DNA from: Oceanispirochaeta sp. | GTDB taxonomy: Bacteria; Spirochaetota; Spirochaetia; DSM-2461 | Assembly (NCBI GenBank): GCA_963663385.2 | Contig: CAXXXD010000004.1 | Location: forward strand, 896,001 to 960,000 | Length of the DNA stretch: 64,000 bases | Direction: 5' to 3' | In this document: positions 1-17,456 of the stretch, one piece after another | Layout of the letters: each line of letters begins with the position of its first letter | Position numbering within the stretch: position 1 is the first letter of the stretch | Program-made: the position numbers and the translations under genes | The notes under the pieces: generated by a model | Databases searched by the model: none | Seen by the model: only the letters and a program-made list of their open reading frames with translations | Told to the model about the DNA's origin: nothing

Positions 1-1489
1 CCGCCTCCCTGTCCGACCGCTACATCACTTCCCGCTTCCTGCCGGACAAGGCGATAGACCTGGTGGATGAAGCGGCCAGCCGTCTTAAAATGGAAATAGA
101 GAGCCAGCCTGTCGAACTGGACCGTCTGGAACGGAAAATCCTGCAGCTGGAAATCGAAAAACAGTCCCTTTCCCGGGAGAAGGACGAAGCTTCCGGGAAC
201 GCCTGGCTATCCTTTCGGAGGAACTGCGGAACCTTCAGGGTGACAGGGATTCCCTGCATCTGCAATGGAAGAACGAAAAAGGCATTATTGATAAAATCCG
301 GGAGCTGAATCAGAAAATAGAGGATCTACGCCGGCAGGAAGCCCAGTACGAACGGGAGGGGAATCTGGCAGGCGCCGCCGAGATAAAGCACGGCAGCATC
401 CCCGATACCCAGATAGAGCTGGCTGCCCGGACAAAACAGCTGCAGAGCATACAGGGGGAGCGCAGTCTTCTCCGGGAAGAGGTGGCCGAAGAGGACATCG
501 CCCGGGTTGTCTCCACCTGGACTGGAATCCCGGTAAGTAAAATGCTCTCTTCCGAGAGGGACAAATATCTGAAACTGGAGGAAATCCTCTCCAGGAGGGT
601 GGTCGGACAGGACAGCGCTGTTCAGGCGATTTCCGATGCCATCCGCCGTAACAAAAGCGGATTAAGCGATATAGGAAGGCCTCTGGGGTCCTTTATCTTC
701 CTCGGACCTACCGGAGTGGGAAAAACGGAACTGGCTAAAACTCTGGCAGATTTTCTGTTTAACGACGAAAAATCGCTGACCAGGATCGATATGAGCGAAT
801 ATATGGAGAAATTTGCGGTTTCCCGCCTTGTCGGAGCGCCTCCCGGTTATGTGGGATACGAAGAGGGCGGTCAGCTGACCGAAGCTGTCAGACGCCGTCC
901 CTATTCGGTTGTACTCTTTGATGAAATAGAGAAGGCCCATCCCGATGTGTTTAATATCCTGCTGCAGCTTCTGGACGACGGCAGACTGACGGACAGTCAG
1001 GGGCGGGTGGTGGACTTCCGCAACGCCATCATTATCATGACCAGTAATCTGGGAAGCGAGATTATACTTGAAAACGGCTCCGGAGAAGAGACCAATGCCC
1101 GTCTGATGGAACTGATGAAACGGACATTCAAGCCTGAGTTCCTGAACCGGGTTGATGATATTATCAGCTTCAACAGCCTGGGAGAAGAGCACATCAGAAG
1201 AATTGTCAATCTGCTGACCGCCCATCTGATCGAACGGCTGAAGGAGAAGAAGATGACATTGGCCGTTACGGATAACGCCGCGTCCTGGCTGGCTCATGAA
1301 GGCTATGATCCCGCTTTCGGAGCCCGTCCCTTAAGGAGGGCTATTCAGAATCTCCTGCAGAATCCCCTTTCCAGGCACCTGCTGGCGGGAGACTTTATGG
1401 AAGGTGATGAAATTCTCTGTGATCTGGAAGGTGACGGTCTTGTGTTCCGGAAAGCCGGAACAGCAGTGAATTCCGCAGCTGAAATTTAA
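1..1489 (+). CDS. clpB: ATP-dependent chaperone ClpB, 5' part outside window, with an apparent -1 frameshift at about 192-197
   Basis: Frame 3 reads [27 protein letters not shown]. After ~194 the middle domain continues in frame 2 into NBD2 ([41 protein letters not shown]). Confidence 0.93.
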
Positions 1490-3021
1490 CGGCGGAGATA
1501 GGAGAGGGTGAGAGGCAGAACAATATTGTTTCCGAACTTATCCTCTCCATAACCGTTTTCCGCAAGGATGCGGATATCCTGTAGAACCCGTTTGTCTCCC
1601 TTGAAGATGACTTTCGTATCGCTGACAATATCGATCCTTCCCATAGCCAGGTAAAGGGCGATGCCCCTTTTGGCAAATTCTCCAAGGGTTTCATTTTCCA
1701 GGGGCGTCAGATCATCAAAGGAAAAGTTGTTGTCGTAGATCATAATCCTCTGCTTTTCCAATAGGTCCAGGAAGACAATCCGCAGTATTTTTTTCATAAG
1801 AGGAACATCGTATGTTGCGTTTATATCCTGGGCAATAAGCTTATGCTTCACCAGGTGCTCCGCTACACTCTGACGCTTTACGTGATTAATCTCCTCGTTT
1901 GCCCGGAACAGTTCCAGGGGCATTGAGGCGTTGTAGTCATTCTGTCCCAGGGTCATGGTCACATCGCTTCCGTAGTGTACGACGATTTTTGCTATCAGTG
2001 TGGAGGGGCGGACATGAAATCCCCTGTAGTTGGGGATGGGAACCTGTATCTCTCCCATCTCGGCATAGTGTTTCAGAATATCCTTGCACAGAGCCTGGGA
2101 GGCAAGTATATACTGCTCGGGGAAAGCTATGAAATATTTCATCAGGTGGTTGAGCAGAACCTTGTCTTCTACAGGATTCTTAAGGATATCCTTCTCTCTG
2201 AAATAGAGGCTGTGCCGTTCGTAGTAGTGGATCAGTATGGTGGCGCATTCCAGCAGGTGGAAAACCACCGATATATGCCCCCTCAATACAGGGAGATTGG
2301 GGTCTTTCTGGGCTACGTCCGAACCGGAAAGGTAGGTATCGTAAAGGGACTGAAGGTTGTGGAATTTGTTTTCCAGAAGCCGCAGTTTCTCTTCGCTTAT
2401 CTCTTCAGGGATGGCTGATTCATATTCATCTTCGTTCAGTTTCTTATAGATTTTAAGAAGGATGCTCTCTTCCGCCAGATTCAGAAAGGATGTCGCCAGG
2501 TATACGGTGGTTTTCTCCGGGAACTCCGACTCTTTTCTTATCCTGTCTGCTGCCAGCCTTCCGGAAAAGGCGTTTTCCTGGAATTTATACTCACTCATGG
2601 GAGTTACTTCAACATTAAGGCCCAGATCGGTATTCAGACGGGTTATTTCACCCGAAGCATTTATCAGGGTTTGAAAGATGGTCTGGATTGTATCGGCAGT
2701 GGATTCCTGAAAATTATTATCAACCTGAAGCAGGTTATAGGAAGGAGCTGCGTTACGAATGTGTATCAGGCTGTAGGCTATGGTTGAAAAGGATTTGATT
2801 ACAGCTGTGATTTTCCGCAGGGGGCTCCATCGCTCGTTATGCTGTACTCCATAGGCATCAAGCAGCTCCTCGCAGCGGGCTGCTTCAAGATTTAACCGCC
2901 CCAGCAACGGCCGGGATACTTCATCTACTGTATAATCTTTCAGTCCCGAGGAAATGGACAGCAGATCTTTCAAATCCGCTCCTATAGAAGCTATAAATGT
3001 ATTATTATCTATTGTTTGCAT
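1486..3021 (-). CDS. 511-aa protein with a C-terminal HPr-like phosphocarrier domain split by an insertion
   Basis: HPr His15 motif GFHVRPSTLIAKIV; HPr-like C-terminal strand and helix KVIFKGDKRVLQDIRILAENGYGE; large unassigned N-terminal region. Confidence 0.75.
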   Translation of the reverse strand: MQTIDNNTFIASIGADLKDLLSISSGLKDYTVDEVSRPLLGRLNLEAARCEELLDAYGVQHNERWSPLRKITAVIKSFSTIAYSLIHIRNAAPSYNLLQVDNNFQESTADTIQTIFQTLINASGEITRLNTDLGLNVEVTPMSEYKFQENAFSGRLAADRIRKESEFPEKTTVYLATSFLNLAEESILLKIYKKLNEDEYESAIPEEISEEKLRLLENKFHNLQSLYDTYLSGSDVAQKDPNLPVLRGHISVVFHLLECATILIHYYERHSLYFREKDILKNPVEDKVLLNHLMKYFIAFPEQYILASQALCKDILKHYAEMGEIQVPIPNYRGFHVRPSTLIAKIVVHYGSDVTMTLGQNDYNASMPLELFRANEEINHVKRQSVAEHLVKHKLIAQDINATYDVPLMKKILRIVFLDLLEKQRIMIYDNNFSFDDLTPLENETLGEFAKRGIALYLAMGRIDIVSDTKVIFKGDKRVLQDIRILAENGYGEDKFGNNIVLPLTLSYLRR

Positions 3022-4276: not shown

Positions 4277-5110
4277 ATGAACTTTCAACCTGAATTCTAC
4301 TCGTCCCTTCCCATGGGAAAGCAGCAATGGATTCTGTTTTCCCCCGGAGAAAGGCAGATCGCTTTTTGTCCTGAAAAAGAGACTCCTTTTATTTCCGGAG
4401 AGAATCTGGAATCGGAAGACCTGAACAGAAAGGAGAACCTGATCCGTTCTCTGGGGATCGGCCGGAGTGACGGGACATATATATGCTGCGGCGAGTGGCG
4501 GGAAAGCGCCGAACTGCCGGAAGGTCTGGAGTGGCAGGATTTCCGTGATGTCTATAGAATTCTGGATAAGCCCCTGCAGTTTCCTGTAAGCCGGGCCAGG
4601 CAGCTTCTGAACTGGGACCGCTCTCACCGTTTCTGCGGAGTCTGTGGTACCGAAACGGTTCCCGGCGACAGGGAACACTCCCGTGTCTGTCCTGCCTGCG
4701 GAGAATTGTTTTATCCGCGCCTCTCTCCGGCTGTCATTGTCAGGATTACCCGGGGGAAGGATAATATCATGCTGGCTCACAACAGGAACTTCCCCAAAGG
4801 GATATACTCCCATATCGCCGGTTTTGTCGAAGCCGGTGAGAGCCTGGAGCAGACCATCCGGAGAGAAATCAGGGAGGAAGTGGGGCTGGAAGTGGAGAAT
4901 ATCCGCTATTTCAGTTCCCAGCCGTGGCCTATGCCGCACTCCCTGATGGTGGCTTTTACAGCAGAGTGTCCGGAAGGGGAGCCCGAGCCGGATGGCGTTG
5001 AGATTCTGGATGCACAGTGGTTTACGAGAGAAAACCTGCCCCTGCCTCCCTCTTCGGGAAGCATTGCCATGGCCATGCTGAAGGACTTTCTGGAAAACAG
5101 ACAGAATTAA
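4277..5110 (+). CDS. nudC: NAD(+)/NADH pyrophosphatase NudC
   Basis: Zinc finger CGVCG..CPACG, Nudix box GFVEAGESLEQTIRREIREEVG, SQPWP signature; AAGGAG RBS. Confidence 0.93.
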   Translation: MNFQPEFYSSLPMGKQQWILFSPGERQIAFCPEKETPFISGENLESEDLNRKENLIRSLGIGRSDGTYICCGEWRESAELPEGLEWQDFRDVYRILDKPLQFPVSRARQLLNWDRSHRFCGVCGTETVPGDREHSRVCPACGELFYPRLSPAVIVRITRGKDNIMLAHNRNFPKGIYSHIAGFVEAGESLEQTIRREIREEVGLEVENIRYFSSQPWPMPHSLMVAFTAECPEGEPEPDGVEILDAQWFTRENLPLPPSSGSIAMAMLKDFLENRQN

Positions 5111-5781
5111 AGCCGGTATCCCACCCGGACGAAGGGTGCCAGCACATGGATGTACCTGGTATTGATGGGAATATATTTATAGGTAAATCCGCTGGAAAAG
5201 CGGAACCTGCCCAAATCCGGATAGCGCGATCCCATCTCCACTACCATCATGGGGCCTGTCGGTGAGTTCTTCTCCTCTTCGGTTTCGAATATATCCCTGT
5301 TGGATATTGTGGCAATTCCGATACCGGCTTTAAAATAGTAGTCCATAAACCGTTTGGTATCCTCAAAGTAGTAAAGATAGTTGTAGAACTGGAAAAGGGT
5401 CAGTTCGTTATCTCCCATATTATAGGAATCCATGATATTCCATTCCAGAGCTGTTCCCACGCCCATGTTCTTCAGAACCCGCTTGGAACTGCCGAAATCC
5501 ATATCCAGTCCTACACAGATATTGATAAAACTGATATTGACGGCGGGAATGGAAAAGCTTGATTCTCCGGTTTTTATCTTTTTGGTATCATAGAACAGCC
5601 CCGGTATAAAGAGGGGAACCGGGTAGAAAATATAGGGCTCGATTCCGGTCTTTTCATGTTCGGCGGCTATCAGCTTCTGTCTTTCCGTTTCGGTCATTTC
5701 CTCAGAGTTCAGGGAGGCAAGAGGGAAGGAGATAAAAAGCAGAAGCAGCAGTACTGTTTTTTGAAATATTGTTCCCTTCAT
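5107..5781 (-). CDS. Putative small outer-membrane beta-barrel protein
   Basis: Signal peptide; alternating aromatic/Gly strands; C-terminus FVRVGYRL; start overlaps the upstream stop (TGATG). Confidence 0.6.
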   Translation of the reverse strand: MKGTIFQKTVLLLLLFISFPLASLNSEEMTETERQKLIAAEHEKTGIEPYIFYPVPLFIPGLFYDTKKIKTGESSFSIPAVNISFINICVGLDMDFGSSKRVLKNMGVGTALEWNIMDSYNMGDNELTLFQFYNYLYYFEDTKRFMDYYFKAGIGIATISNRDIFETEEEKNSPTGPMMVVEMGSRYPDLGRFRFSSGFTYKYIPINTRYIHVLAPFVRVGYRL

Positions 5782-7214
5782 CAGAAGCGGTAACCTCCCA
5801 TCATCCAGGGGTGAATACTGTCCAGATCCCCTCCCGTATATTTACTCATCCGTACATCCAGTCCGAACTCCAGGAGAATCCCGTTCCGGAACTCTTTCTG
5901 AGCACTGAAGGCCAGGGTAAAGGCATACCCGATCTCGCCCTGCAGGACTTCTCCGAAAAGTTCAGTCTCATGGATCTCAAGGTTTGTAATACCTCCGCCG
6001 AAACGGGGGAGCAGGGTCCAGTTCCTCAGCAGAGGAACTTTGTAATAGGCATGCAGCCCCGTATAGAACTGATTGTAGTAAAACTCTGCATTCTCATAAT
6101 AGAGGGATGTGAAATCCATGCCCAGTTCAATTCCCAGTGGACGCAGGCCGGGGACCCTCCAGAATACCTTGTTGGACATATCCTGACGGATTTTCAGACC
6201 GAATCCATAGGGCACGGAGCTGTAATCTCCGTATTCGGAGGATGCGCCTGATGCAAAGGTGTAGCCTCCCAGTATGGACAGCGAGTCCGATGGGGGCACT
6301 TCATGGATAATTTCCTTAAGGGGCGCTTTTTCAATTATAAAAGCCTTCTCTTTTTTCGCAACGACCCCGGAGGGATTGGTTATTTCCAGATCATAACGGC
6401 CGGGAGCCACCTCTCCCGTAATCAGGGCCAGACGGACTTCCTCTTCGCTGATCCACTCGGTCTCGTAAGGTGCTATCAGCTGATCATCCATAAAGATCCT
6501 GGCCGAAAACCCTTCTTCAAACTGCTTCCCCTTAACAATAATCTCAGGGTATACCTCTTTCTGTTCCAGTCTTTTGTAACTGACAGAACGAATCTCCGGT
6601 TCAATAACTTCCAGTACGGTAAGGACATTTATCTCCGAGGTATCCTCCAGCCCGGAGGAGTCTACAGCGCTCAGGGTGTAAACGCCGGGAGGCAGTTTGT
6701 TCATCGGGAATACCAGGGTGACCGATTCTTCCTTCAGTTCCGATTGTCTGCCCTCTGTCTTTTCTCCGCTTTCATCGGTCAGAAAAAACTTTGTATCCGG
6801 TTTTACCTGATATACTTCGGCCTGTATGGATAAAGAGCCCCCGGCTGCTTCAAATACCTCATCCGGTGTAAAGCGGCGGACAACGGGCTGAAAAGCTTCC
6901 TTGATTATCAGAGGTTTCCAGGGGGTTTCGCCTACCACTTTTTTGAATTTGTTAAGAACCACGATACTGAATTCGTACTCTCCCGGATTAAGGGAGAAGG
7001 TCAGCTCCGATTCATTTGTCTGCTGACGGAGAATCTCTTCATTTCCGCTGCGGATTATAACCTCATACCCCCAGGCGCCTTCCACATTTTCCCAGCTCAG
7101 TTCCTGTTCCACGAGTTCGTCCCTGCGGTTCTGGCTGGTTAACTGAAAAAGAGGGAAAAGGAAAAGTAAAAGGATCAGCAGCGTTATGCTTCGTTTTGTA
7201 TCTTTATCGCGCAT
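5781..7214 (-). CDS. Exported protein with FN3-like and IPT/TIG-like domains and a C-terminal beta-barrel
   Basis: Signal peptide; LSWENVEGAWGYEV..PGEYEFSI; PGRYDLEITNPSG; C-terminus WMMGGYRF resembles a BamA beta-signal. Confidence 0.7.
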   Translation of the reverse strand: MRDKDTKRSITLLILLLFLFPLFQLTSQNRRDELVEQELSWENVEGAWGYEVIIRSGNEEILRQQTNESELTFSLNPGEYEFSIVVLNKFKKVVGETPWKPLIIKEAFQPVVRRFTPDEVFEAAGGSLSIQAEVYQVKPDTKFFLTDESGEKTEGRQSELKEESVTLVFPMNKLPPGVYTLSAVDSSGLEDTSEINVLTVLEVIEPEIRSVSYKRLEQKEVYPEIIVKGKQFEEGFSARIFMDDQLIAPYETEWISEEEVRLALITGEVAPGRYDLEITNPSGVVAKKEKAFIIEKAPLKEIIHEVPPSDSLSILGGYTFASGASSEYGDYSSVPYGFGLKIRQDMSNKVFWRVPGLRPLGIELGMDFTSLYYENAEFYYNQFYTGLHAYYKVPLLRNWTLLPRFGGGITNLEIHETELFGEVLQGEIGYAFTLAFSAQKEFRNGILLEFGLDVRMSKYTGGDLDSIHPWMMGGYRF

Positions 7215-9942
7215 ATTGCAGCTCCGGAGATAAAATTTCAGGCAGCACAGTTATTTCCGGCAGAGTAAGCTCAAAAGGTACGGTATGAAGTTCACTCTGC
7301 TGGAAAATCTCACCGTCTTTCTCTCTGAAAGCCTGGATCTCAAGGGTGTATCCTCCCACGTCCAGGTCTTCCAGCCTACTAAAAGTATACCCCGTTGCGG
7401 CAAGTTTTTCCTGATGAAAGACGAGTGAGCCGTTATCATTTCTTTTAAGTTTCAGGTCATAGTATTCCGCACGGTTGACGGGGGTCCAGCGAAAGTTCAG
7501 CTCATCTTTCTCCTGCATATCAATGACAGCTCCCGATACCGGTTCGCTTACTCCGGGGGGGGGCAGGGCGGGAATGGCTGTGATATGAAATGTGTAAAGG
7601 GATGAGGGCGGACTGTCATTGCCCTCGCTGTCCTGAGAAAGGATCTGCAGGTAGTAGGTTCCTATGGGTAGATCCGGAATCGCTCTGCTGAGCACGCCGA
7701 GCTGTTCATCCAGTACGGTCGTGGCAAATTCAGGATCCCTGGATACCCTTATCTGCTGAATCGGCAAAGGCGGTGACTGGGTCCAGCGGAAAAAGGGTTT
7801 CTGTTCCAGAATGTTAAGACGGGAAAGATCCTGTTCCTGTGCCGGGTATACCAGAACGGGTTTCGAATACCCCTGCACTTTGGAGAGGGAAAAACGTCTC
7901 AGGGCGGGATCACTGCTGTTCAGGTATTCCTCATCGATTCTGTTGAAGGCCTGAATTTTCAGGGTATAGTCGCCAACCCGCAGGCTGGATTTGTCATCAA
8001 TAATCCAGCTGGTTCCGGTGGTCTCTGTTTTCCGCAGGGTCGGAAAGTTCCTGTTGGCGGGAATCAGTTCGGCATTGTAGTATTCTCCGCCCGGTACGGG
8101 AAGCCACTGTATTTCAAGCGCATTATCCCCCACCACCGAGAGGCTGGCATCCGCCTGGGGGAGCCGGATTTCAGGCTGGTTCAGTTTATCCGCCATACGG
8201 AAAGGGGTTTGTTCGCTTTTTATCACCGTATTGCCATCCCTGTCCAGAACCCCGACCTGCCAGTAATAGTTACCGGCTCCCGGGAGGGGAAGAGAAGAGG
8301 GGGTACTGAGGACCTGCTGGGTCATAAGGGGAACCAGTGCATTATCCTCGCGGAATATCTGAATCTCGTAGGGACCTTCCAGGCTGCTGTCCCAGGAAAA
8401 GGGGGTACGGTCATAGGACTCCACAATCAGCATACTGTCTCTTGCCGGTTTTTCCGGTTCTATATAGATCCGGGCGGCAAGGATATCGAAATCCCTGATT
8501 TCGGAGGGAGGGACGGCTTTATTCTCTTTATCCAGCCCATCTACCTGCCAGTAGTAGCGACCCTGTTCCGGCAGGGTATTCATCAGATAAGTGTTTTTGT
8601 TAAGCCATTGGTCAACAATCAGATTGGTTAGTTCGGGATCCCCGGCAATCATCAGGTGATAACTGCCTATCTCCCTGTCCGTCTTCCAGCTGAAACGGAG
8701 TCCTTCCCTGGATTTCAGGGGATTAATCTGTTCCCTGTCCGCCGGAAGAATCAGAGTCGGCGGTTCCACGGTTTCATTCAGTTCTACCCGAAACCGCCTG
8801 ATATCAGCTTGCGCATAGGCTATCTTGGTTGCCGTATTGTACTCGGGAATAACCCTCCAGTAATACTCTCCGGCGGGGACTTCCCGTACGGTCTGAAAGT
8901 TGTTGCCGCTGACCAGGTCTGTCAGCATATCTGTAAATCCCGCATCCCGTGCAACCTGAAGACGGGATGAGTTGGAAAGGCCGGACGATTCCCAGGAGAA
9001 GGCCATATCCGGAAGGGTTTTTCTGTATTGAAACACTTCATCCATCTGCGGAACCTGCAGAGACGGAGCGCTGTCCCGAATCAGGACCACCCTGTTGGCC
9101 GGGCTGAAGTAGGGGGTGCCGTCTCCGTAATTACCCTTGATTCGCCAGAAGTAGGTTCCGGGAAGGACCGCCCTGCTGAATTCGGAACGGCCGGGATCCG
9201 GTGTCAGCCTTTCTGCAGAGCGGAAATCGCTCTGTTCTGCGATTTCCAGTACAAGATTCTCAAGCGGGAGAATTTGCTCCCACTTAAAATTGACGGGGAC
9301 GGAAGCGGATGTGGTCATTAATAGCCTGTTGTTGGCCGGGTACTTCAGTGTTACAGCTTCCTGTTCCACCGTGATTTCATCTTCGATGCTGGCACGGTAA
9401 TTTTCTTTGATGCTTTGGGTTTTATTCCCTACGGTTACATCGATAGCTCCCTCATCCACCGAAAGGTTTATAGCCTCGCCTTTACTCTTATCCAGGGTTA
9501 CGCTGGCACTATCCAGAGAAATCACTGTATCCTCTGCTTTAATATTAAGGGTGGAATCTCCTTTTCCGCTCCTTTCGGCGGAAATGTTACCTCCAAGGAA
9601 TTCAATGCTCTTTTCTTCCTCACCCCATTCCAGAACAATATAGGTATTGGCTGCCAGGGTGATTTCCGTTCCGTCAATCAGTTTGATGACCGCTTCGGAG
9701 TCTTCAATTGTCCGGAGGCTGTCATAATTGTAGAGGGGGGCGCTTGTTTCCAGCTCTCCCCAAACAGCCCTGTCCGAAAATTTCCTCTGGGCGCTGTTGC
9801 TGATAAATGTAATCTCTCCGATTACTTCGCCGCCTTCGTTGGATATCTGGCTGTTCAGATCCCTGTAAAATTCCAGACCGGCCCAGGCAAAGGCGTAGAG
9901 AAGAAGGCCCGTTATGAAAAAATCCCTAATCCATGATTTCAT
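7204..9942 (-). CDS. Membrane-anchored FecR-domain protein with about 7 FN3/Ig-like repeats
   Basis: N-terminal TM; FecR-like YDSLRTIEDSEAVIKLIDGTEITLAANT; seven G-x-Y-x-(W/L)-x-(V/I) motifs. Start at ATG 9942 is inferred. Confidence 0.8.
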   Translation of the reverse strand: MKSWIRDFFITGLLLYAFAWAGLEFYRDLNSQISNEGGEVIGEITFISNSAQRKFSDRAVWGELETSAPLYNYDSLRTIEDSEAVIKLIDGTEITLAANTYIVLEWGEEEKSIEFLGGNISAERSGKGDSTLNIKAEDTVISLDSASVTLDKSKGEAINLSVDEGAIDVTVGNKTQSIKENYRASIEDEITVEQEAVTLKYPANNRLLMTTSASVPVNFKWEQILPLENLVLEIAEQSDFRSAERLTPDPGRSEFSRAVLPGTYFWRIKGNYGDGTPYFSPANRVVLIRDSAPSLQVPQMDEVFQYRKTLPDMAFSWESSGLSNSSRLQVARDAGFTDMLTDLVSGNNFQTVREVPAGEYYWRVIPEYNTATKIAYAQADIRRFRVELNETVEPPTLILPADREQINPLKSREGLRFSWKTDREIGSYHLMIAGDPELTNLIVDQWLNKNTYLMNTLPEQGRYYWQVDGLDKENKAVPPSEIRDFDILAARIYIEPEKPARDSMLIVESYDRTPFSWDSSLEGPYEIQIFREDNALVPLMTQQVLSTPSSLPLPGAGNYYWQVGVLDRDGNTVIKSEQTPFRMADKLNQPEIRLPQADASLSVVGDNALEIQWLPVPGGEYYNAELIPANRNFPTLRKTETTGTSWIIDDKSSLRVGDYTLKIQAFNRIDEEYLNSSDPALRRFSLSKVQGYSKPVLVYPAQEQDLSRLNILEQKPFFRWTQSPPLPIQQIRVSRDPEFATTVLDEQLGVLSRAIPDLPIGTYYLQILSQDSEGNDSPPSSLYTFHITAIPALPPPGVSEPVSGAVIDMQEKDELNFRWTPVNRAEYYDLKLKRNDNGSLVFHQEKLAATGYTFSRLEDLDVGGYTLEIQAFREKDGEIFQQSELHTVPFELTLPEITVLPEILSPELQYAR

Positions 9943-12778
9943 ACTTAACTTCTTCTTTCTCCGTATTAACATCAGCGATATTGTCGAAATTTCCTGTTAT
10001 TCCAACCCTTTCCCGCAGTTCTTTCAGTGATTTGGGGCGGTCCGGATCATCCAGCCGTCCCAGAACCGCGTAGATCTGCTGAGGTTCCGACTTCCCTTTA
10101 ACCTTGATCTTGTTCATGGGAACCAGGTCGAATATCCCTTCGACCACGTCCGCAGTTCCCTGGGAAATAAGCAGATCCGTACCCATGGGTTTATTCAGGG
10201 CTTCAATTCGGGAAGCCAGGTTTACGGCATCTCCAATTACAGTATACTCCATCCTTTCATTTGAACCGATCTGGCCGGCCAGAACGTCCCCGCTGTTCAG
10301 TCCGCATCCAACCTTGATTATCGGTTTCCTGTCGCCTCCGCGGCCCTGGTTGAATTTCCTCAGGGCCGTCCGCATCATAAGAGCGCCGTTTATCGCATTT
10401 TCCGCATCGTTCCCATGGGAAATGGGAGTCCCCCATACAGCCATAATAGCATCGCCGATATACTTGTCCACCACGCCGTGCGTCCGGTTGACGCAGTCAA
10501 CCATAAGGGTCATATACTCATTCAGGAATGTAACCACTTCGCTTGGAGTCAGTTTTTCCGATATGGCTGTAAATGAACGGATATCTGAAAAGAATATGGT
10601 GGCCGGTTTGATCTCCCCGCCCAGCTGGATCTCACCCCGTTCAGCCAGTTCGGCCATCTCCCTGTTAACGAAACGGCCAAAGGCATCCTTGATCCTCTCT
10701 TTTTCTTCCAGCCCCATCCCCATGTTGACAAAAGCCCTTGTGAGGACACCGATCTCATCCTGGGTTCTGGGTTTTAAGAGGAGATTGTAATCCCCGTCTT
10801 CGATTTTCTTTGTGGCCGATACCAGTTTTCTGATGGGATTGGAGAGTGATTTGGAGTAGAAGTAGATGATCAGTATGGCCATGGCCACAAACATGATCAT
10901 CAGCAGGATATTCCGCCGCTGGATCCTGTAAATCCCTTCAAAAGCCAGTTTCTCGGGAACCGTGGTAATTACACCCAGCCGGCCGAAAGCTATTTTCTTG
11001 TAGGAACCCAGATAGAATTCATCCTGCTCCTGTTCAAAACGGATCTGACCGTTATTTACGGCAGAGGAAAAAAGCTCCTGTACAATGGGAAGGTCACCCA
11101 TATTGATCCCGGAGGTTACAACTGTCGTATCAGGATGGGCAATAAGGTACCCCTCCGAGTCGACGATGAATGTGTCGGTGATGCCCCGGGACTGGACGGC
11201 TTTCTGAAGGGACTGCCTTATATCCGTCAGTATCAGAAGGGTTTTTATGCCCTTTTCCTGTTTATAGGGAATGGTCATACCCAGCATGGGGATGCCAAAG
11301 TAGGTGGAGACGTTAAATACCGACGGTGTTCCGCCTCCGGCCAGTCGTATCTGTTCGGGGTAGTCCTCCAGTATTCCCTTGATAAACTCTTCTGATATTC
11401 CCAGTTCTCCCATCAGGCTGCTGTTAAAGAACATTCGTTCTTCACCGGCTATACCTACAAAGAGGATATTTTTTTCGCTGCGGAAGAAGTAGTTCATATA
11501 GTTCTGTTCTTCCGGTGTTTCACCATAGCCGGCGCCCAGGAGCAGCAGGGAGGCGCTATTCCCTATTTTCAGCAAATTCTCTTCAGTCTGGGACGCTATG
11601 GTTTCAGACAGCTTCAGATTGCTTTCCTCCACTCGAACCTGGCTGTCCTGAAGGAAAAAGAGGGTCGCCAGCATAATCATCCCCATCAGGGCCGCCACAA
11701 TAATCAGTGATGTGATGATACTCATCTTTATCCCTATCGGGTAGCGGATAACAGTGCCCGGTTCCGGTTTTATCCGCTTATCAATCTCTATTTCTTCAGC
11801 AGATTCTTCTATCTGCGGTTCTATGGTTTTCCTGGGACTGCTTCTGTCTATCCCGAGATTTTCAATGGCCACAGCGGATTCCGGGTTAAACAGAATGGTG
11901 TCCGTTTCAATGCGTTTTTCCTCTTCCGGGTTGTAGGAGATGATCTTTTCGGGAGGTTCCGCCTGAGTTACCAGTGAAATGGTCTGGTCCGGAGCTGAGA
12001 GTACCGACAGAATCCGGACAGGTATCTTCTGGGAGGTCCAGAACTCCTCAGGGGTCTCCCGGGTTTTCATAATAAAGTAATAGGGTAGAAGCGGGCTCTT
12101 TTCTTCCTGATCCGTCGGGAATTCCAGGGCTCCGTGAAACTGCAGGATCCGATCGCTTTTCCACTGTCTGATATGGGCTATCAGGGCAAGGGGATCATCC
12201 ATTGCTGTCAGATCTACATAACTCAGGGAGAGATACTCGCCTCTTCCTGCCATACGGAGTACAGGATCGGGGATGGTAAAATCCAGCTGCCCCCCGACGG
12301 TTCTGTTCATGCTTATGGGTCGGATGGGGAAGCGTTCGGGAAGGACAAAACCGGCCCGGCCAAACAGGCCGGTAACCCACTGGACCGCTTTGTCATTGAT
12401 GTTTTCCACTGCCGGGTAGATAATCTGCCGGGAAGGGGTAACAAAAGATCCGAATTCATCGGCCAGGGAGATGTTGTCCCGGAGCTGACGGATCTGCTTC
12501 ATCAGAGTCAGGAGCAGGGATCTGTCATTTCTGTCGAATCCCCTGCTGGCTGTTCCCCGTTTGGATACCAGCTGTCCTCCCAGGTACGCCAGGCGTGCCA
12601 TGGTCATGAGATTCAGAAACCCCGCCATATGATAGAGACCGGAGAATTGATGAATCAATCCCGGTACGGCCTGGGACTTCTGATTGAGGGCGGATCTGGT
12701 CAGAGATTCAATCTCCTCTATTTGCTGATCCAGTACGTTCAGGTACTTTTTATAATAGTCAGTCGTATTCTGAGGCAT
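9926..12778 (-). CDS. Class III adenylate cyclase: N-terminal extension, TM, Cache-like sensor, TM, HAMP, catalytic domain
   Basis: Catalytic motifs FSDIRSFT, DKYIGDAIMA, EYTVIGDAVNLASRIE and KVKGK; HAMP PIRKLVSATKKIEDGDY..DEIGVLTRAF. Lys plus Thr at the specificity positions suggests ATP as substrate. Confidence 0.92.
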   Translation of the reverse strand: MPQNTTDYYKKYLNVLDQQIEEIESLTRSALNQKSQAVPGLIHQFSGLYHMAGFLNLMTMARLAYLGGQLVSKRGTASRGFDRNDRSLLLTLMKQIRQLRDNISLADEFGSFVTPSRQIIYPAVENINDKAVQWVTGLFGRAGFVLPERFPIRPISMNRTVGGQLDFTIPDPVLRMAGRGEYLSLSYVDLTAMDDPLALIAHIRQWKSDRILQFHGALEFPTDQEEKSPLLPYYFIMKTRETPEEFWTSQKIPVRILSVLSAPDQTISLVTQAEPPEKIISYNPEEEKRIETDTILFNPESAVAIENLGIDRSSPRKTIEPQIEESAEEIEIDKRIKPEPGTVIRYPIGIKMSIITSLIIVAALMGMIMLATLFFLQDSQVRVEESNLKLSETIASQTEENLLKIGNSASLLLLGAGYGETPEEQNYMNYFFRSEKNILFVGIAGEERMFFNSSLMGELGISEEFIKGILEDYPEQIRLAGGGTPSVFNVSTYFGIPMLGMTIPYKQEKGIKTLLILTDIRQSLQKAVQSRGITDTFIVDSEGYLIAHPDTTVVTSGINMGDLPIVQELFSSAVNNGQIRFEQEQDEFYLGSYKKIAFGRLGVITTVPEKLAFEGIYRIQRRNILLMIMFVAMAILIIYFYSKSLSNPIRKLVSATKKIEDGDYNLLLKPRTQDEIGVLTRAFVNMGMGLEEKERIKDAFGRFVNREMAELAERGEIQLGGEIKPATIFFSDIRSFTAISEKLTPSEVVTFLNEYMTLMVDCVNRTHGVVDKYIGDAIMAVWGTPISHGNDAENAINGALMMRTALRKFNQGRGGDRKPIIKVGCGLNSGDVLAGQIGSNERMEYTVIGDAVNLASRIEALNKPMGTDLLISQGTADVVEGIFDLVPMNKIKVKGKSEPQQIYAVLGRLDDPDRPKSLKELRERVGITGNFDNIADVNTEKEEVKYEIMD

Positions 12779-12965: not shown

Positions 12966-13031
12966 TCACCATAATGTATGGTATGCAGAGCGGCATACCA
13001 TACATCACAGACAGGGGGAGGTTTGAGAGGT

Positions 13032-13379
13032 TTGAAGTATTACGGGAAGATTCTGTTTCGCAGTTTGATCCTCTGTATTATTCTTACAGCGATTTCAGCC
13101 TGTTATGACCGCTATCCCTATTTTATACAGGTTCCCGAATTTTCCCTGTCCTATCCGGAAGACGGGTCGGCCGGGGTTGTGATCACTATTTCAACCCCCG
13201 ATGAAAAGAACCTGATCCGTTATACCACCGACGGCAGTATGCCTTCGGAATCAGAGGGATTCCTTTATGAAAATCCCGTCAGTTTAACAACGGCAACAAC
13301 CCTGCGGGCCGTTGCCTACCGGGAAGGGTATCCGGCAGGACCTGTAACAGAGTATTACTATGATCCCCAGAATGATTAA
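13032..13379 (+). CDS. Small lipoprotein with an FN3-associated/chitobiase C-terminal-like domain
   Basis: Lipobox-like ILTAISAC; IRYTTDGSMPS..YENPVSL..TLRAVAY. TTG start at 13032 is inferred. Confidence 0.7.
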   Translation: MKYYGKILFRSLILCIILTAISACYDRYPYFIQVPEFSLSYPEDGSAGVVITISTPDEKNLIRYTTDGSMPSESEGFLYENPVSLTTATTLRAVAYREGYPAGPVTEYYYDPQND

Positions 13380-14796
13380 GCGATTTTTTCTTTACATACT
13401 GGCAGCTCTGCTGCTTTTCTCCTGTCCCAGTCCTGTCAGTAAATCAGATGACAGCAGTGATGAGGATGATAAAACCGCAGACGCCATATTTGAATCCTTT
13501 TATCTGGCACCGCAATTCAACACAAGCCTGGATGAGACTGTTATCGGTGAGATAGGTGAGGATTCGATTCTCCTTGTCGTACCCGGATCGGCGGACAACA
13601 CCATGTTTATTGTCTCTTATGATACAGATGCCGTAACGGTTACAGTAGATGGAAATGTTCAGACAAGCGGAAACTCCTCTCAGGATTTTTCCGGTTCCGT
13701 CGAATATTCTCTGACATCCGAATCGGGTAATGTTCACACCTATACGGTTAGCATGATTCATACAGGAGAGTGGAACCATATGGAAGGTTCCCCCGTAGGC
13801 ATGGGTTCTCTGCCGCAGATTGGATTCCTGCACGGGATCTTCCCCGAATTAATCTATCTGGACAGCGTGTCCACCCAGCTGCGGAGTCTCTACTTCAATG
13901 CTTTTGACAGCAGTTTCTGGGTCCCCTTTTCGGGGACGGGGCATTTCGGGGTGCCCAGTATTACACAGTATTCAAGTCGTAACGCTGACGGACCGGTATG
14001 GGCCGCCTATATCAATAACGCCCTTCCGGATTCTCTTCAGCTCTACAAATTCGATTCAGGGAGCGGCTGGATGGATGTTGCGCCCATGCCTTTGGTTATC
14101 ACCGGTCCGGCTGACAGTCTGAACCTCTTTTCCGCCTATCATGATTCAGTCTGTCTGAGTCTGATAAACGGTGCGGATTCCCTGAAAAGGGCGGAACTCT
14201 GGCAGTTTAACGGAGCCTGGTCCCAGATCGGCGGGGGGGCCCTGTCCGATGATACGGCTGTTTCTCTGTGTGCCGCAGAACTGAACACCGGAATCTGGGC
14301 TGCCGCCACCTATGAAGAGTATCCGGACAGCCTCTATCTCTATCAGTACAATTATGGTACGGGAATCTGGTCATTCGAAACGGTCGCCCTGTCCTCCTAT
14401 CTGGTTCACAGCCTTTTTCAGAACGAAGACACGGGCCAGCCTCTGCTGGTTGCCAGCTGTGTGAACGGGGAGGATCCCTCTCAAGTTGATATCAAATGGT
14501 TATCCTGGGACCCTGAAAACAGCGGGTTTACCGACTTTGTCTCTCCTCTGACACTGCCTGCGGCATTAACTGATCCTCTGGATCCGGTTTTTTACGACAA
14601 TACCCCCCTTATCGCCACTTCAGGTTCTGTTTATGAGTATATTAACGAAGGGTGGCGCGAACTGGGCGGTGAAGCCTACTGTGACCCCCCCGCAAGTTCT
14701 TTTTCCGTTGCAGCAGCTTCCGAAGGAATCCGCTTTGTCTCATACCAGGATTCTGATACCTTAGAGATTAGAATAAAAATGGTTGAGTTGGAGTAG
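13372..14796 (+). CDS. Lipoprotein with an N-terminal Ig-like domain and a Trp-rich beta-propeller-like region
   Basis: Lipobox LLLFSC; QTSGNSSQDFSGSVEYSLTSESG..YTV; repeated strands ending in Trp. Confidence 0.65.
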   Translation: MIKRFFLYILAALLLFSCPSPVSKSDDSSDEDDKTADAIFESFYLAPQFNTSLDETVIGEIGEDSILLVVPGSADNTMFIVSYDTDAVTVTVDGNVQTSGNSSQDFSGSVEYSLTSESGNVHTYTVSMIHTGEWNHMEGSPVGMGSLPQIGFLHGIFPELIYLDSVSTQLRSLYFNAFDSSFWVPFSGTGHFGVPSITQYSSRNADGPVWAAYINNALPDSLQLYKFDSGSGWMDVAPMPLVITGPADSLNLFSAYHDSVCLSLINGADSLKRAELWQFNGAWSQIGGGALSDDTAVSLCAAELNTGIWAAATYEEYPDSLYLYQYNYGTGIWSFETVALSSYLVHSLFQNEDTGQPLLVASCVNGEDPSQVDIKWLSWDPENSGFTDFVSPLTLPAALTDPLDPVFYDNTPLIATSGSVYEYINEGWRELGGEAYCDPPASSFSVAAASEGIRFVSYQDSDTLEIRIKMVELE

Positions 14797-14851: not shown

Positions 14852-16219
14852 ATGAGTAAACTCTGGCAGAAAAACTATGAGCTGAATGAGCTGATTGAAG
14901 AGTTTACCGTAGGGATTGATTATATTCTGGATCAGAAACTGATTCCCTCGGACTGTGTGGCCAGTCTGGCACACGCGACTATGCTTACATCCATAGGTAT
15001 CCTCACGGAGGATGAGAAATTGTCTCTTGCCGCAGGTCTGCGGCAGATCCTGAAAGAACACCGCAACGGGAACTTTCCCATCCTCCGGTCCGATGAGGAC
15101 GGTCATACGGCTATTGAAAACCGTCTGGTGGATCTGGCAGGGGAGGCCGGGAAAAAAATCCATACAGGCCGCAGCCGGAACGACCAGGTGGTTACAGCCA
15201 CCCGGGTATACGCCCGTTCCCGGGTCCTGCAGCTGATCCGTCAGGGAGGAATCCTGACCCGTTCCCTGCTGACTCTGGCCGAAACTCATAAAAACACACC
15301 CATGCCGGGCCGGACCCATATGCAGATTGCCATGCCCTCATCGGTTGGACTCTGGGCAGCCAGTTTTGCCGAAGAGATGCTGGACAGCCTGCGTCTGTTA
15401 ACCGCGGCCTGGGAGATCCTGGATCAGAATCCTCTGGGAGCCGCCGCCAGTTATGGAGTCCCCCTTAAGCTGGACCGGGCCATGACAGCCCGTCTTATGG
15501 GTTTCTCCCGGGTTCAGAATAACGTGCTGTATGTCAATAACTCCCGGGGCAGGATGGAGCTGATGGTTCTGGATATTCTGGACCAGATGGCTCTGGGCAT
15601 GAGCAAGATGGCCCAGGACCTGATCCTGTTTTCTCTCCCCGAATTCGGGTATTTCAGTCTCCCCATGGAGCTGTGCAGCGGGTCCAGTATTATGCCCCAG
15701 AAGAAGAATCCCGACGGTCTGGAGCTTATGAGAGCCAAAGCCGGAACAATCAGCGCCTGCGGGACTCAAATCAGAAATATCCTGCGCTCCCTCCCATCCG
15801 GCTATAACCGGGATTTTCAGGAAACAAAAGAGCCTTTTATAAAGGGATGCGATATAACCCTCCAGTGCCTGAGGGTTATGACCCTGACATTCGACAAGCT
15901 TCAGGTAAATCCCGAAAAACTGAAGGAAGGGTTTTCTACAGATATATACGCAACCGATGTCGCTTTGAATCTGGTGGCCGGCGGAATGAGCTTCCGGGAT
16001 GCCTACAGGGAAGTGGGGCTGAACCTTGATAAGCTGGGGCAGCAGAATCCGGATGAGTCCATCACATCCCGGACATACCCCGGGACAACGGGCAATCTGG
16101 CGCTGGAACAGGCGGAAGCTTCTCTGGAAGAGCTGATGAAAACCTGTGAGTCCAGAGAAGAGCATATTGCTGCTGCTGTGAAATCTCTTATGGGAGAGGA
16201 TGTCTCTCTTATTCTTTAG
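14852..16219 (+). CDS. argH: Argininosuccinate lyase
   Basis: KIHTGRSRNDQV, MPGRTHMQIA, GSSIMPQKKNPD, LPSGYNRDFQE. Confidence 0.95.
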   Translation: MSKLWQKNYELNELIEEFTVGIDYILDQKLIPSDCVASLAHATMLTSIGILTEDEKLSLAAGLRQILKEHRNGNFPILRSDEDGHTAIENRLVDLAGEAGKKIHTGRSRNDQVVTATRVYARSRVLQLIRQGGILTRSLLTLAETHKNTPMPGRTHMQIAMPSSVGLWAASFAEEMLDSLRLLTAAWEILDQNPLGAAASYGVPLKLDRAMTARLMGFSRVQNNVLYVNNSRGRMELMVLDILDQMALGMSKMAQDLILFSLPEFGYFSLPMELCSGSSIMPQKKNPDGLELMRAKAGTISACGTQIRNILRSLPSGYNRDFQETKEPFIKGCDITLQCLRVMTLTFDKLQVNPEKLKEGFSTDIYATDVALNLVAGGMSFRDAYREVGLNLDKLGQQNPDESITSRTYPGTTGNLALEQAEASLEELMKTCESREEHIAAAVKSLMGEDVSLIL

Positions 16220-17456
16220 GAGAAGAGACGGATGACTCCTGCTGATCGTCCGCCAGTTCCTGAATCTGTTTAATCAGTTCACGGAGTTTCCGGGTTTCTT
16301 CCCTGCTGTCTGCCAGTTCAGATTCCAGGTTCATGTTTTCCTGAGCAAGAAAGGTTTCCGATTTTTTCAGAGAATCAGACTGTTCCTGTGCTTCCGCCAG
16401 TTTCCGGGTAAAGCTGGTGCGCAGTTCGGTCAGCTCTTTCTGATGACGGAGTCTCATCTCTTCTACCGCAGGATCCGTTTTATTAAGGGCTTCCTCTTCT
16501 TCAAGGGTGTCTTCCCAGTCCAGTGGCTGCATTTCGACGATAAGACGTGAGTCTTCCAGCTCTCCCGGCAGCAGACGGAATGATTCGTCTCTATACCCCC
16601 GTTTTCTCAGGAGGATGGTCAGTTCCGTATCCGGCAGGAAGAGCCCCGATACTTCCGAATACCCGTTCAGGCGTCCATTGATATAGATCTGGGCGCCCTC
16701 CGGGCTGCTTAGAATCTGCAGGTAAACAAGATCCTCCCGTTCTACGGCCACATCATCGGGAGATTCGCTTCTGAAAACCTCTTCGTCATTCAAGGTGAAA
16801 GCCTGAACTTCCGGAATTTCAGTTTCGTCCTTCTTCAGCTCCAGTTTCTCCATAGGCTCAAGGGATTTCAGAAGGGTTTCCTTCTGGTTGTCATCCAGTG
16901 TCAGAACAGCCACCATCCCATCCAGAACGGAAACAACCGTACGTCCCCCCGGAAGGGCCTGTACCATAAATTCCGTTCCTTCCACGCGGTAGATCCTTTC
17001 CTGAGCAAGAATCTGAAGGTTTTCGCTGTTCATCAGCTCTTCCACTTTGTAAATCATGGATCCTGTCAGCAGTTCCGTCCTGATGTCCGCATCTTTGTTT
17101 CCGCTCAGGAGTTTTCTGATTTTTACCAGAGTATTGCTGCGGATTTTCAGGCTGGCTGTACCGGCAAAACTGACCTGACACAGGGAGTCGTCCACTACTT
17201 TGATAATATCCCCTTCCTGTACACGGTCTCCCGGCAGGGGGATAATCATCTTTTCGGCCCGGATTATATAGACTTCTCCGGAAATCCGTGTAATGACAGC
17301 TTCTCCTTCTTCGGCGGGTCTTATCTTTTCAGGTCCGGATGTACCGGATTCGGAATCCGGTCTGTTAAACAGAGTATCAGAGTAAAAATAGAGAAGCCCT
17401 GCCGCCAGCAGGACTCCCGATATAAAAAAGGATAAGGATTTCACAGCCTGTCTCAT
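16209..17456 (-). CDS. Membrane-anchored FecR-domain protein with a PEGA domain and C-terminal coiled coil
   Basis: TM; FecR-like GDIIKVVDDSLCQVSF..YRVEGTEFMV..VSVLDG; PEGA-like ILSSPEGAQIYING..RKRGY; heptad-rich tail. Confidence 0.75.
   Translation of the reverse strand: MRQAVKSLSFFISGVLLAAGLLYFYSDTLFNRPDSESGTSGPEKIRPAEEGEAVITRISGEVYIIRAEKMIIPLPGDRVQEGDIIKVVDDSLCQVSFAGTASLKIRSNTLVKIRKLLSGNKDADIRTELLTGSMIYKVEELMNSENLQILAQERIYRVEGTEFMVQALPGGRTVVSVLDGMVAVLTLDDNQKETLLKSLEPMEKLELKKDETEIPEVQAFTLNDEEVFRSESPDDVAVEREDLVYLQILSSPEGAQIYINGRLNGYSEVSGLFLPDTELTILLRKRGYRDESFRLLPGELEDSRLIVEMQPLDWEDTLEEEEALNKTDPAVEEMRLRHQKELTELRTSFTRKLAEAQEQSDSLKKSETFLAQENMNLESELADSREETRKLRELIKQIQELADDQQESSVSSPKE

Follow-up and report, generated by a model that had tools for sequence, protein, structure and literature searches.

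The locus described here lies in 64 kb of Oceanispirochaeta DNA (contig CAXXXD010000004.1; the whole stretch is called the window below) and encodes a class III adenylate cyclase, a FecR-domain protein with a long rod of FN3 repeats and two beta-barrel proteins. The closest described systems are of three types (papers are cited, here and throughout, for the individual passages or tables that bear on these genes). With FecA-FecR-FecI and PupB-PupR-PupI the locus shares a single-pass inner-membrane protein, a juxta-membrane FecR fold and an apparent link to an outer-membrane protein (PMC7186176). Unlike them, it has no anti-sigma or STN domain, no TonB receptor and no sigma factor, their place being taken by an FN3 rod and a cyclase; since the anti-sigma domain, the STN subdomain, the linked receptor and the sigma factor are all missing, this is not FecA-FecR-FecI signalling. 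With Sinorhizobium meliloti NsrA and CyaK, and CyaD1/D2, it shares the combination of an outer-membrane barrel with an inner-membrane class III cyclase and no sigma factor (PMC7529298, PMC13001267). In NsrA-CyaK, cyclic AMP (cAMP) is the output and the barrel acts upstream in signalling (PMC7529298), whereas the module presented here is known from sequence alone. The sensor is of the Cache-HAMP type here, and CHASE2 in the CyaK system (PMC7529298, PMC13001267). The barrel is small here, with 8 strands and about 165 residues, while that of NsrA spans residues 600-1200. Here the FecR domain belongs to a protein of its own, which sits in the inner membrane and has an FN3 rod, unlike in NsrA, which is itself said to bear FecR and TPR domains. 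In a cluster of the Campylobacterota, too, a FecR-domain protein is genomically paired with a receptor cyclase, in what has been proposed to be a single pathway; that cluster comprises a CHASE2 adenylate cyclase, a phosphodiesterase, a FecR-domain protein of the outer membrane and a TPR protein, so that FecR is on the outer-membrane protein, and the passages concerned describe no FN3 rod, anchor or HAMP domain (PMC9239204). By analogy, the module appears to work like NsrA-CyaK with different parts. Full-text literature searches, with most subscription papers outside their coverage, gave no description of the three-gene set of cyclase, rod and barrel as one system.

We propose that the cyclase, the rod and barrel protein 1 are probably parts of a single receptor cyclase spanning the envelope, through which events at the outer membrane would tune cAMP synthesis via HAMP. 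A first-pass annotation of the sequence had described four co-directional, overlapping genes, and all four open reading frames (ORFs) are indeed found on the minus strand, the cyclase and rod genes overlapping by 17 nucleotides, rod and barrel 1 by 11 and the two barrel genes by 1. The features are as follows.

9926..12778, minus strand: receptor-type class III adenylate cyclase of 950 residues, with N-terminal extension, first transmembrane helix (TM1), Cache-like periplasmic domain, second transmembrane helix (TM2), HAMP and catalytic domain.
11984..12778, minus strand: cytoplasmic N-terminal extension of the cyclase (residues 1-265), a CheA P1 (Hpt)-like bundle followed by a CheA P2-like domain, from a model and fold comparison.
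10841..10915, minus strand: cyclase TM2 (residues ~622-646), with L626 coupled to rod F25, from the transmembrane call and covariation.
10070..10609, minus strand: cyclase catalytic domain (residues 724-903), PF00211, E 1.2e-25.
7204..9942, minus strand: FecR-domain rod protein of 912 residues, anchored in the inner membrane, ATG at 9942; homologues in 116/301 genomes, E <= 1e-21.
9865..9924, minus strand: membrane helix of the rod (residues ~7-26), with F25 at its periplasmic end, from hydropathy and covariation.
9442..9720, minus strand: FecR domain of the rod (residues 75-167), PF04773, like the juxta-membrane subdomain of PupR, with no STN subdomain after it.
7288..9366, minus strand: seven FN3-like repeats of the rod (residues 193-885), from a repeat profile.
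7207..7275, minus strand: C-terminal tail of the rod, resembling an FN3 A strand (8.9 bits, A-strand profile), the proposed donor strand.
5781..7214, minus strand: barrel protein 1, 477 residues, with a signal peptide, then FN3, two domains of IPT/Ig type and an outer-membrane barrel of 8 strands.
5107..5781, minus strand: barrel protein 2, 224 residues, accessory, with a signal peptide and a barrel only, found in close kin only.

A scan of the locus for promoters and terminators gave nothing usable.

Contact between rod and cyclase was examined by covariation over 130 paired rows (effective number of sequences, Meff, 100; 306 x 191 column pairs), after loci L042, L073, L103, L116, L118, L139 and L167 had been dropped. 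Between the two proteins a single pair, cyclase L626 and rod F25, is far ahead of the rest, with z 16.6 against 7.3 for the next. In 67 rows an Ile at 626 is paired with Leu or Met at 25, and in 53 rows a Leu at 626 is paired with Phe or Tyr. In a narrower analysis the true pairing gave z 15.3 for these two positions, whereas across 30 random re-pairings no pair of positions exceeded 9.2, and z is also 15.3 on 65 non-redundant rows. The value falls to 5.9-6.8 when each cyclase is paired with the rod of its nearest kin, and what is left after this swap indicates that part of the signal is shared ancestry. On a tree of 257 branches, position 626 changes 17 times and position 25 changes 19 times; 8 of the changes at 626 share a branch with a change at 25, where about 1.3 would be expected. 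Where paralogues in the same genome differ at 626, the rule fits 22/24 cognate pairings and 2/24 swapped ones, counting 12 pairs both ways and with a rule taken post hoc from the same data. The weaker pairs 622-28, 625-25 and 629-22 follow the same antiparallel register, yet score within the random range. L626 and F25 both lie where the inner membrane meets the periplasm. This strong covariation argues that the membrane helix of the rod very likely packs on cyclase TM2, a helix continuous with HAMP. The first-pass annotation had the signal pass from the FecR domain to the cyclase; a direct contact is likely, but the coupling is between the membrane helices, and no coupling between FecR and Cache domains is significant. 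A complex predicted from two TM-Cache-TM chains of the cyclase and rod residues 1-200 scored 0.24, against a mark of 0.32, the controls not being folded, and carries no weight for or against the contact.

The gene order was surveyed in 301 Spirochaetota genomes; beyond the phylum, only one locus, from the Bdellovibrionia (L167), was included. The rod is matched in 133 of them; in 116 the match is strong (E <= 1e-21), and the other 17, where it is weak (E > 1e-12), were left out. A profile built from the TM-Cache-HAMP part of rod-adjacent cyclases matches 116 genomes (E <= 1e-30). The two sets of 116 genomes are identical, kin among them being non-independent. At 96 rod loci, picked from the listed matches to cover families and paralogues, the cyclase gene is directly upstream of the rod in every case, 94 by the gap rule and two by inspection (L073, with the cyclase in two frames, and L115, with an over-called start). 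Barrel 1 is directly downstream of the rod at 69/96 of these loci and within the locus at 71/96. A converse search seeded with the cyclase gave 46 loci, or 41 once L172-L176, which are short matches to the HAMP region, were dropped. The rod is directly downstream of the cyclase in 40/41 and divergently adjacent in the Bdellovibrionia locus, so that the expected conservation of this neighbourhood across the phylum holds for cyclase and rod at 96/96 rod-seeded and 41/41 cyclase-seeded loci. In the cyclase-seeded set, barrel 1 follows directly in 13/41 loci and barrel 2 in 3/41 (L131, L132, L134). The module is present in 45/45 genomes of one family (f17), which bear LIC11435 where tested, and was not found in several sampled families, for example f22 (0/38) and f5 (0/6). 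The constant part is cyclase plus rod; barrel 1 is usually present, and barrel 2 is a local add-on. The system had been described with two barrels; barrel 1 stands as a core component, but barrel 2 does not, and a barrel is not obligatory, as 15/96 rods have a propeller instead.

About 7 cytoplasmic residues precede the rod anchor, as had been noted, compared with the 82 that precede the membrane anchor of PupR (PMC7186176). The anchor is weakly hydrophobic, below the hydropathy cut of 1.6 here and at 1.6-3.2 in 95/96 homologues, and the helix begins by residue 13 in 60/96 homologues even when the first possible start is called. PF04773 (FecR) is found in 87/89 rod members, and in a profile search the FecR domain matches residues 21-141 of PupR (6ovk_R, E 0.0045). 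No STN-type Pfam family is found in the rod at E <= 0.1; FN3 repeats occupy residues 193-885, and the repeat profile counts exactly 7 of them, where about seven had been estimated. We infer that the FecR-fold protein acts here as a cyclase subunit and not as an anti-sigma factor. The repeat number is 4, 5 or 7 in 92/97 rods. An Ig-type domain is roughly 3.5-4 nm long, and at that length the ten Ig-type domains could be long enough to cross the periplasm.

Fifteen of the 96 rods (L068, L074, L080, L085, L086, L090, L094, L096, L098, L101, L107, L108, L110, L123, L124) end in PEGA and a BamB-like PQQ propeller, have no barrel neighbour and keep the cyclase; the ending was assigned by Pfam on 2/15 and read from the sequence in the other 13. 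These long rods had been taken for fusions to a barrel, which was wrong, their end being the propeller. The tip of the rod is a swappable input, either a barrel or a BamB-like propeller.

Where a barrel is used, its link to the rod may be a missing strand. The rod repeats open with a Pro-x-Leu/Ile-x-x-Pro strand, and against an FN3 repeat profile trained on complete repeats, 447/502 of them start by profile column 12. Of 69 barrel-1 FN3 domains compared with the same profile, none starts at column 12 or before and 57 start at column 25 or later. A score of at least 5 bits on a profile of the A strand is reached by 28/70 tails of barrel-linked rods, compared with 2/15 propeller rods and 7.7% of shuffles (L125, at a contig edge, was left out). 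In 5/5 tested genomes whose tailed rod has no barrel neighbour, a relative of barrel 1 is encoded elsewhere. This motif evidence makes it fairly probable that the rod tail supplies the missing A strand of the barrel-1 FN3 domain, as a donor-strand clip.

The model of barrel protein 1 (predicted local distance difference test, pLDDT, 88.8) has a signal helix, a six-stranded FN3 domain (residues 37-104) without strand A, two Ig/IPT domains and an eight-stranded barrel (residues 311-476). Foldseek with the whole model gave multi-Ig chains only and no match to a barrel fold. Barrel 1 scores 64.6 bits (E 7e-18) against the LIC11435 family (NF047756), under the curated cut-off of 380 bits, which suggests a distant relative of that family and of Tp0483. 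The mean column identity of the barrel sequences is 13%. Barrel 2 matches the profile of the barrel-1 barrel (E 7.7e-11), has no homologue at E 1e-3 in the 96 more distant loci and, as it has no FN3 domain, cannot join the rod by the tail-FN3 clip. Tandem two-barrel proteins occur at L097, L100 and L105, and a second FN3-barrel gene at four loci (L145, L152, L156, L168). A second barrel or a second FN3-barrel gene could compete for the single rod tail.

The cyclase had been described as a Cache-HAMP class III enzyme, and this is borne out: there are two transmembrane helices and, in Pfam, HAMP at residues 640-691 and Guanylate_cyc at 724-903, the periplasmic part giving a weak match to dCache_1 (E 0.006, below the cut-off) and none to CHASE2 at E <= 0.1. 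D732, K772, D776, T846, N853 and R857 are all present, and this six-residue pattern is kept in 130/133 aligned cyclase sequences. We take these positions, on the IIIb scheme, to be two metal-binding Asp, an ATP-selecting Lys and Thr, and a catalytic Asn and Arg. With its catalytic residues intact, the protein carries the hallmarks of an ATP-specific enzyme making cAMP.

What the first-pass annotation overlooked is a cytoplasmic N-terminal extension of about 340 residues. In a model of residues 1-268 (pLDDT 81.9), a P1-like bundle is followed by a beta-alpha-beta-beta-alpha-beta domain resembling CheA P2. Compared over residues 1-145, the fold gives Z 14.8 and 14.4 with CheA P1 (3kyj_A and 1i5n_A; root-mean-square deviation 2.2 over 123 residues), although a designed helical bundle ties with P1 at Z 14.3, and the top Foldseek match of the model is the P1-P2 chain 2lp4 (E 3.5e-3). 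The likeness to CheA is one of fold, as sequence searches gave no link: there was no Pfam match, the CheA ORF scored E 5 and nothing in the PDB came under E 0.6. No invariant or nearly invariant His that could accept a phosphate was found in the relevant helix of 14 aligned extensions, and in an alignment by eye Ser46 occupies the phospho-His position. The modelled extension thus looks like a CheA P1 fold without its His, and in this lineage it probably provides a second input, on the cytoplasmic side, or a docking site. The same P1-like extension is seen at 13 related loci (L131-L137, L145, L151, L152, L156, L166, L168). Other cyclases of 800-1080 residues (L056, L072, L076, L079 and others) have a different extension which, by eye, resembles a dual-specificity phosphatase without the catalytic Cys (1/25 scanned gave a weak match to CDKN3, E 8e-4), and that of L112 is GGDEF-like. 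This cyclase seems to gather disabled signalling domains.

The first-pass annotation had mentioned, as unverified, a similar gene order around the fibronectin-binding gene tp0483 of Treponema pallidum, and this proved right. Locus L111, in genome G102, encodes a 614-residue cyclase, a 671-residue FecR protein and a barrel protein. TPANIC_0485 is a cyclase of 614 residues, TPANIC_0484 a PupR-like FecR family protein of 671 residues and TPANIC_0483 an FN3 protein with an OmpA-like barrel and a validated fibronectin adhesin (PMC13749626); a loop sequence listed for TPANIC_0483 in that paper is found in the L111 barrel protein. G102 has no class III cyclase match besides the cyclase of the module, no FecR match besides its rod and no match to a TonB receptor. 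Among the Leptospira counterparts, LIC11437 is annotated as a cyclase (PMC3798601). LIC11436 would be the rod because of its numbering between LIC11437 and LIC11435. We take LIC11436 to be the protein also named MFn7. Of the barrel proteins of family f17, four were scored, and all four exceed the LIC11435 family cut-off (486-525 bits). The gene set, then, matches tp0485-0483 and, we infer, LIC11437-35. Whereas the literature passages treat the T. pallidum and Leptospira genes singly, as adhesin, antigen or function unassigned, we consider them as a set; the window copy differs from theirs by more Ig-type repeats, a second barrel and the CheA-like extension. Furthermore, a test for selection comes out positive for tp0483 but not for tp0484 (PMC8789261, Table 4), as would be expected if the barrel is exposed and the rod hidden.

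Neither a TonB-dependent receptor nor an extracytoplasmic function (ECF) sigma factor is found in the 64-kb window, so the claim that the FecR protein lacks both usual partners stands for the locus; elsewhere, however, the genome has one TonB-dependent receptor match and several ECF-type sigmas. PF00593 (TonB receptor) has no match in 3/5 complete genomes that bear the module. As for a CRP-family read-out like that of the NsrA-CyaK relay, cyclic nucleotide-binding matches over the cut-off number 19 in the genome, none of them in the window. FecR matches in the genome number at least 7, a lower bound because the FecR protein at window positions 16209-17456 is missing from the matches listed. 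That protein (minus strand; LipL45-like, with PEGA and a coiled coil) lies 3.4 kb upstream of the cyclase and has counterparts at L131, L132 and L134. A second cyclase-FecR arrangement is present in the same genome (L129, 6405-12304; G000:C4, ~331400-337300), in which a 903-residue membrane cyclase, CHASE2-like by eye, is divergent from three other genes, for a small secreted protein, a barrel-like protein and a soluble FecR protein. Two lipoprotein-like genes (window 12978-14796, plus strand), the first with an Fn3_assoc domain, diverge from the cyclase promoter region, and a 511-residue protein (window 1486-3021, minus strand) has an embedded HPr-like segment (PF00381, E 0.002).

In the mechanism that we propose, binding, pull or displacement at the outer-membrane barrel would be passed down the rod, the two being joined where the rod tail completes the first FN3 domain of barrel 1. 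The rod helix would then shift against cyclase TM2, HAMP would be altered and cAMP output would change. Such outside-in control of cyclase activity by barrel and rod is what we would expect on balance. As to the stimulus, we give roughly even odds to surface contact or a ligand at the barrel loops and to a mechanical change in how far apart the two membranes lie.

Several observations weigh against this reading. L626-F25 is the single individually significant pair, from a shallow alignment in which the best pair within the cyclase reaches only z 7.7. The barrel is directly downstream at only 69/96 and 13/41 loci, though several loci of the second set run up to a contig edge. Because its repeat number varies, the rod is no fixed ruler. 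In the tail test, 42/70 barrel-linked tails fall below 5 bits, and covariation between tail and barrel FN3, over 83 rows, has a top z of 5.4, equal to the mean random maximum of 5.4. A candidate Rosetta-stone fusion, in which cyclase and rod form a single frame of 1596 residues (L042, 4101-8891), was set aside: it has six A where close homologues imply seven and is probably a sequencing error, one base short in the A run. From the literature, the S. meliloti FecR-domain protein SMc02177 is dispensable for signal perception (PMC5498481), LIC11436 reportedly binds fibronectin and increases the adhesion of a saprophyte, which clashes with a periplasmic rod (PMC11350617), and one study did not find Tp0483 at the outer membrane (PMC10118025).

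Among the alternatives, the same binding could serve to monitor envelope assembly, the readout being the insertion of the barrel, or its availability to capture the tail, with no signal from the loops. The propellers that replace tail and barrel in 15/96 rods mean that the input can be wholly periplasmic, and the poor conservation of the barrels, the second FN3-barrel genes at four loci and the tandem barrels at three would all suit such a monitor. Low conservation together with positive selection on tp0483 suits ligand-binding loops equally, however (PMC8789261), and Tp0483 binds fibronectin, a binding that peptide 316-333, from its barrel half, blocked (PMC10118025); we regard a monitor of this kind as unlikely. 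Just as improbable, in our judgement, is that rod and barrel only join the membranes or position the cyclase, which would be controlled by its own Cache ligand and by the extension. The cyclase does have a complete sensor architecture of its own and a lineage-specific extension, and covariation indicates contact, not regulation; yet the coupled residue belongs to TM2, which drives HAMP, paralogous cyclases retain their own matching rod, and the barrel-free propeller form would be impossible for a tether. Least probable of all is a classical FecR pathway, by proteolysis or a distant sigma factor, or a pair of surface adhesins merely co-regulated with the cyclase, for although the FecR fold, the sigmas and TonB receptor elsewhere in the genome and published fibronectin binding (PMC11350617, PMC13749626, PMC10118025) point that way, some 7 residues leave no room for an anti-sigma domain (82 in PupR), there is no STN subdomain, 3/5 complete module-bearing genomes have no TonB-receptor match, and co-regulated adhesins leave the residue-level coupling unexplained.

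To our knowledge, what triggers cAMP synthesis in spirochaetes is largely open, and our literature search gave only a light-activated and a virulence-linked cyclase. New here are the L626-F25 coupling, the rod tail as a likely donor strand and the His-less CheA-P1-like fold. Beyond the receptor cyclase proposed for this locus, it is conceivable, though we hold this only tentatively, that the module represents a widespread class of mechanical receptor cyclases, in which a three-protein strut, held in the periplasm by FN3 donor-strand exchange and in the inner membrane by packed helices, would report surface contact straight to HAMP and need neither a sigma factor nor a protease nor a soluble ligand, and the His-less CheA P1-P2 region would link the cyclase to chemotaxis proteins. 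Tp0483 would then be the sensing end of cAMP signalling in T. pallidum, because the module is the sole class III cyclase system found in the T. pallidum-like genome G102. On the receptor-cyclase reading itself, two reported adhesins of T. pallidum and Leptospira would be parts of a sensor. The module offers a testable role for genes filed as adhesins or unknowns, with one residue pair and one tail peptide named, and its reach extends to 116/301 sampled genomes, among them all 45 of family f17, and to G102, where it holds the sole class III cyclase match.

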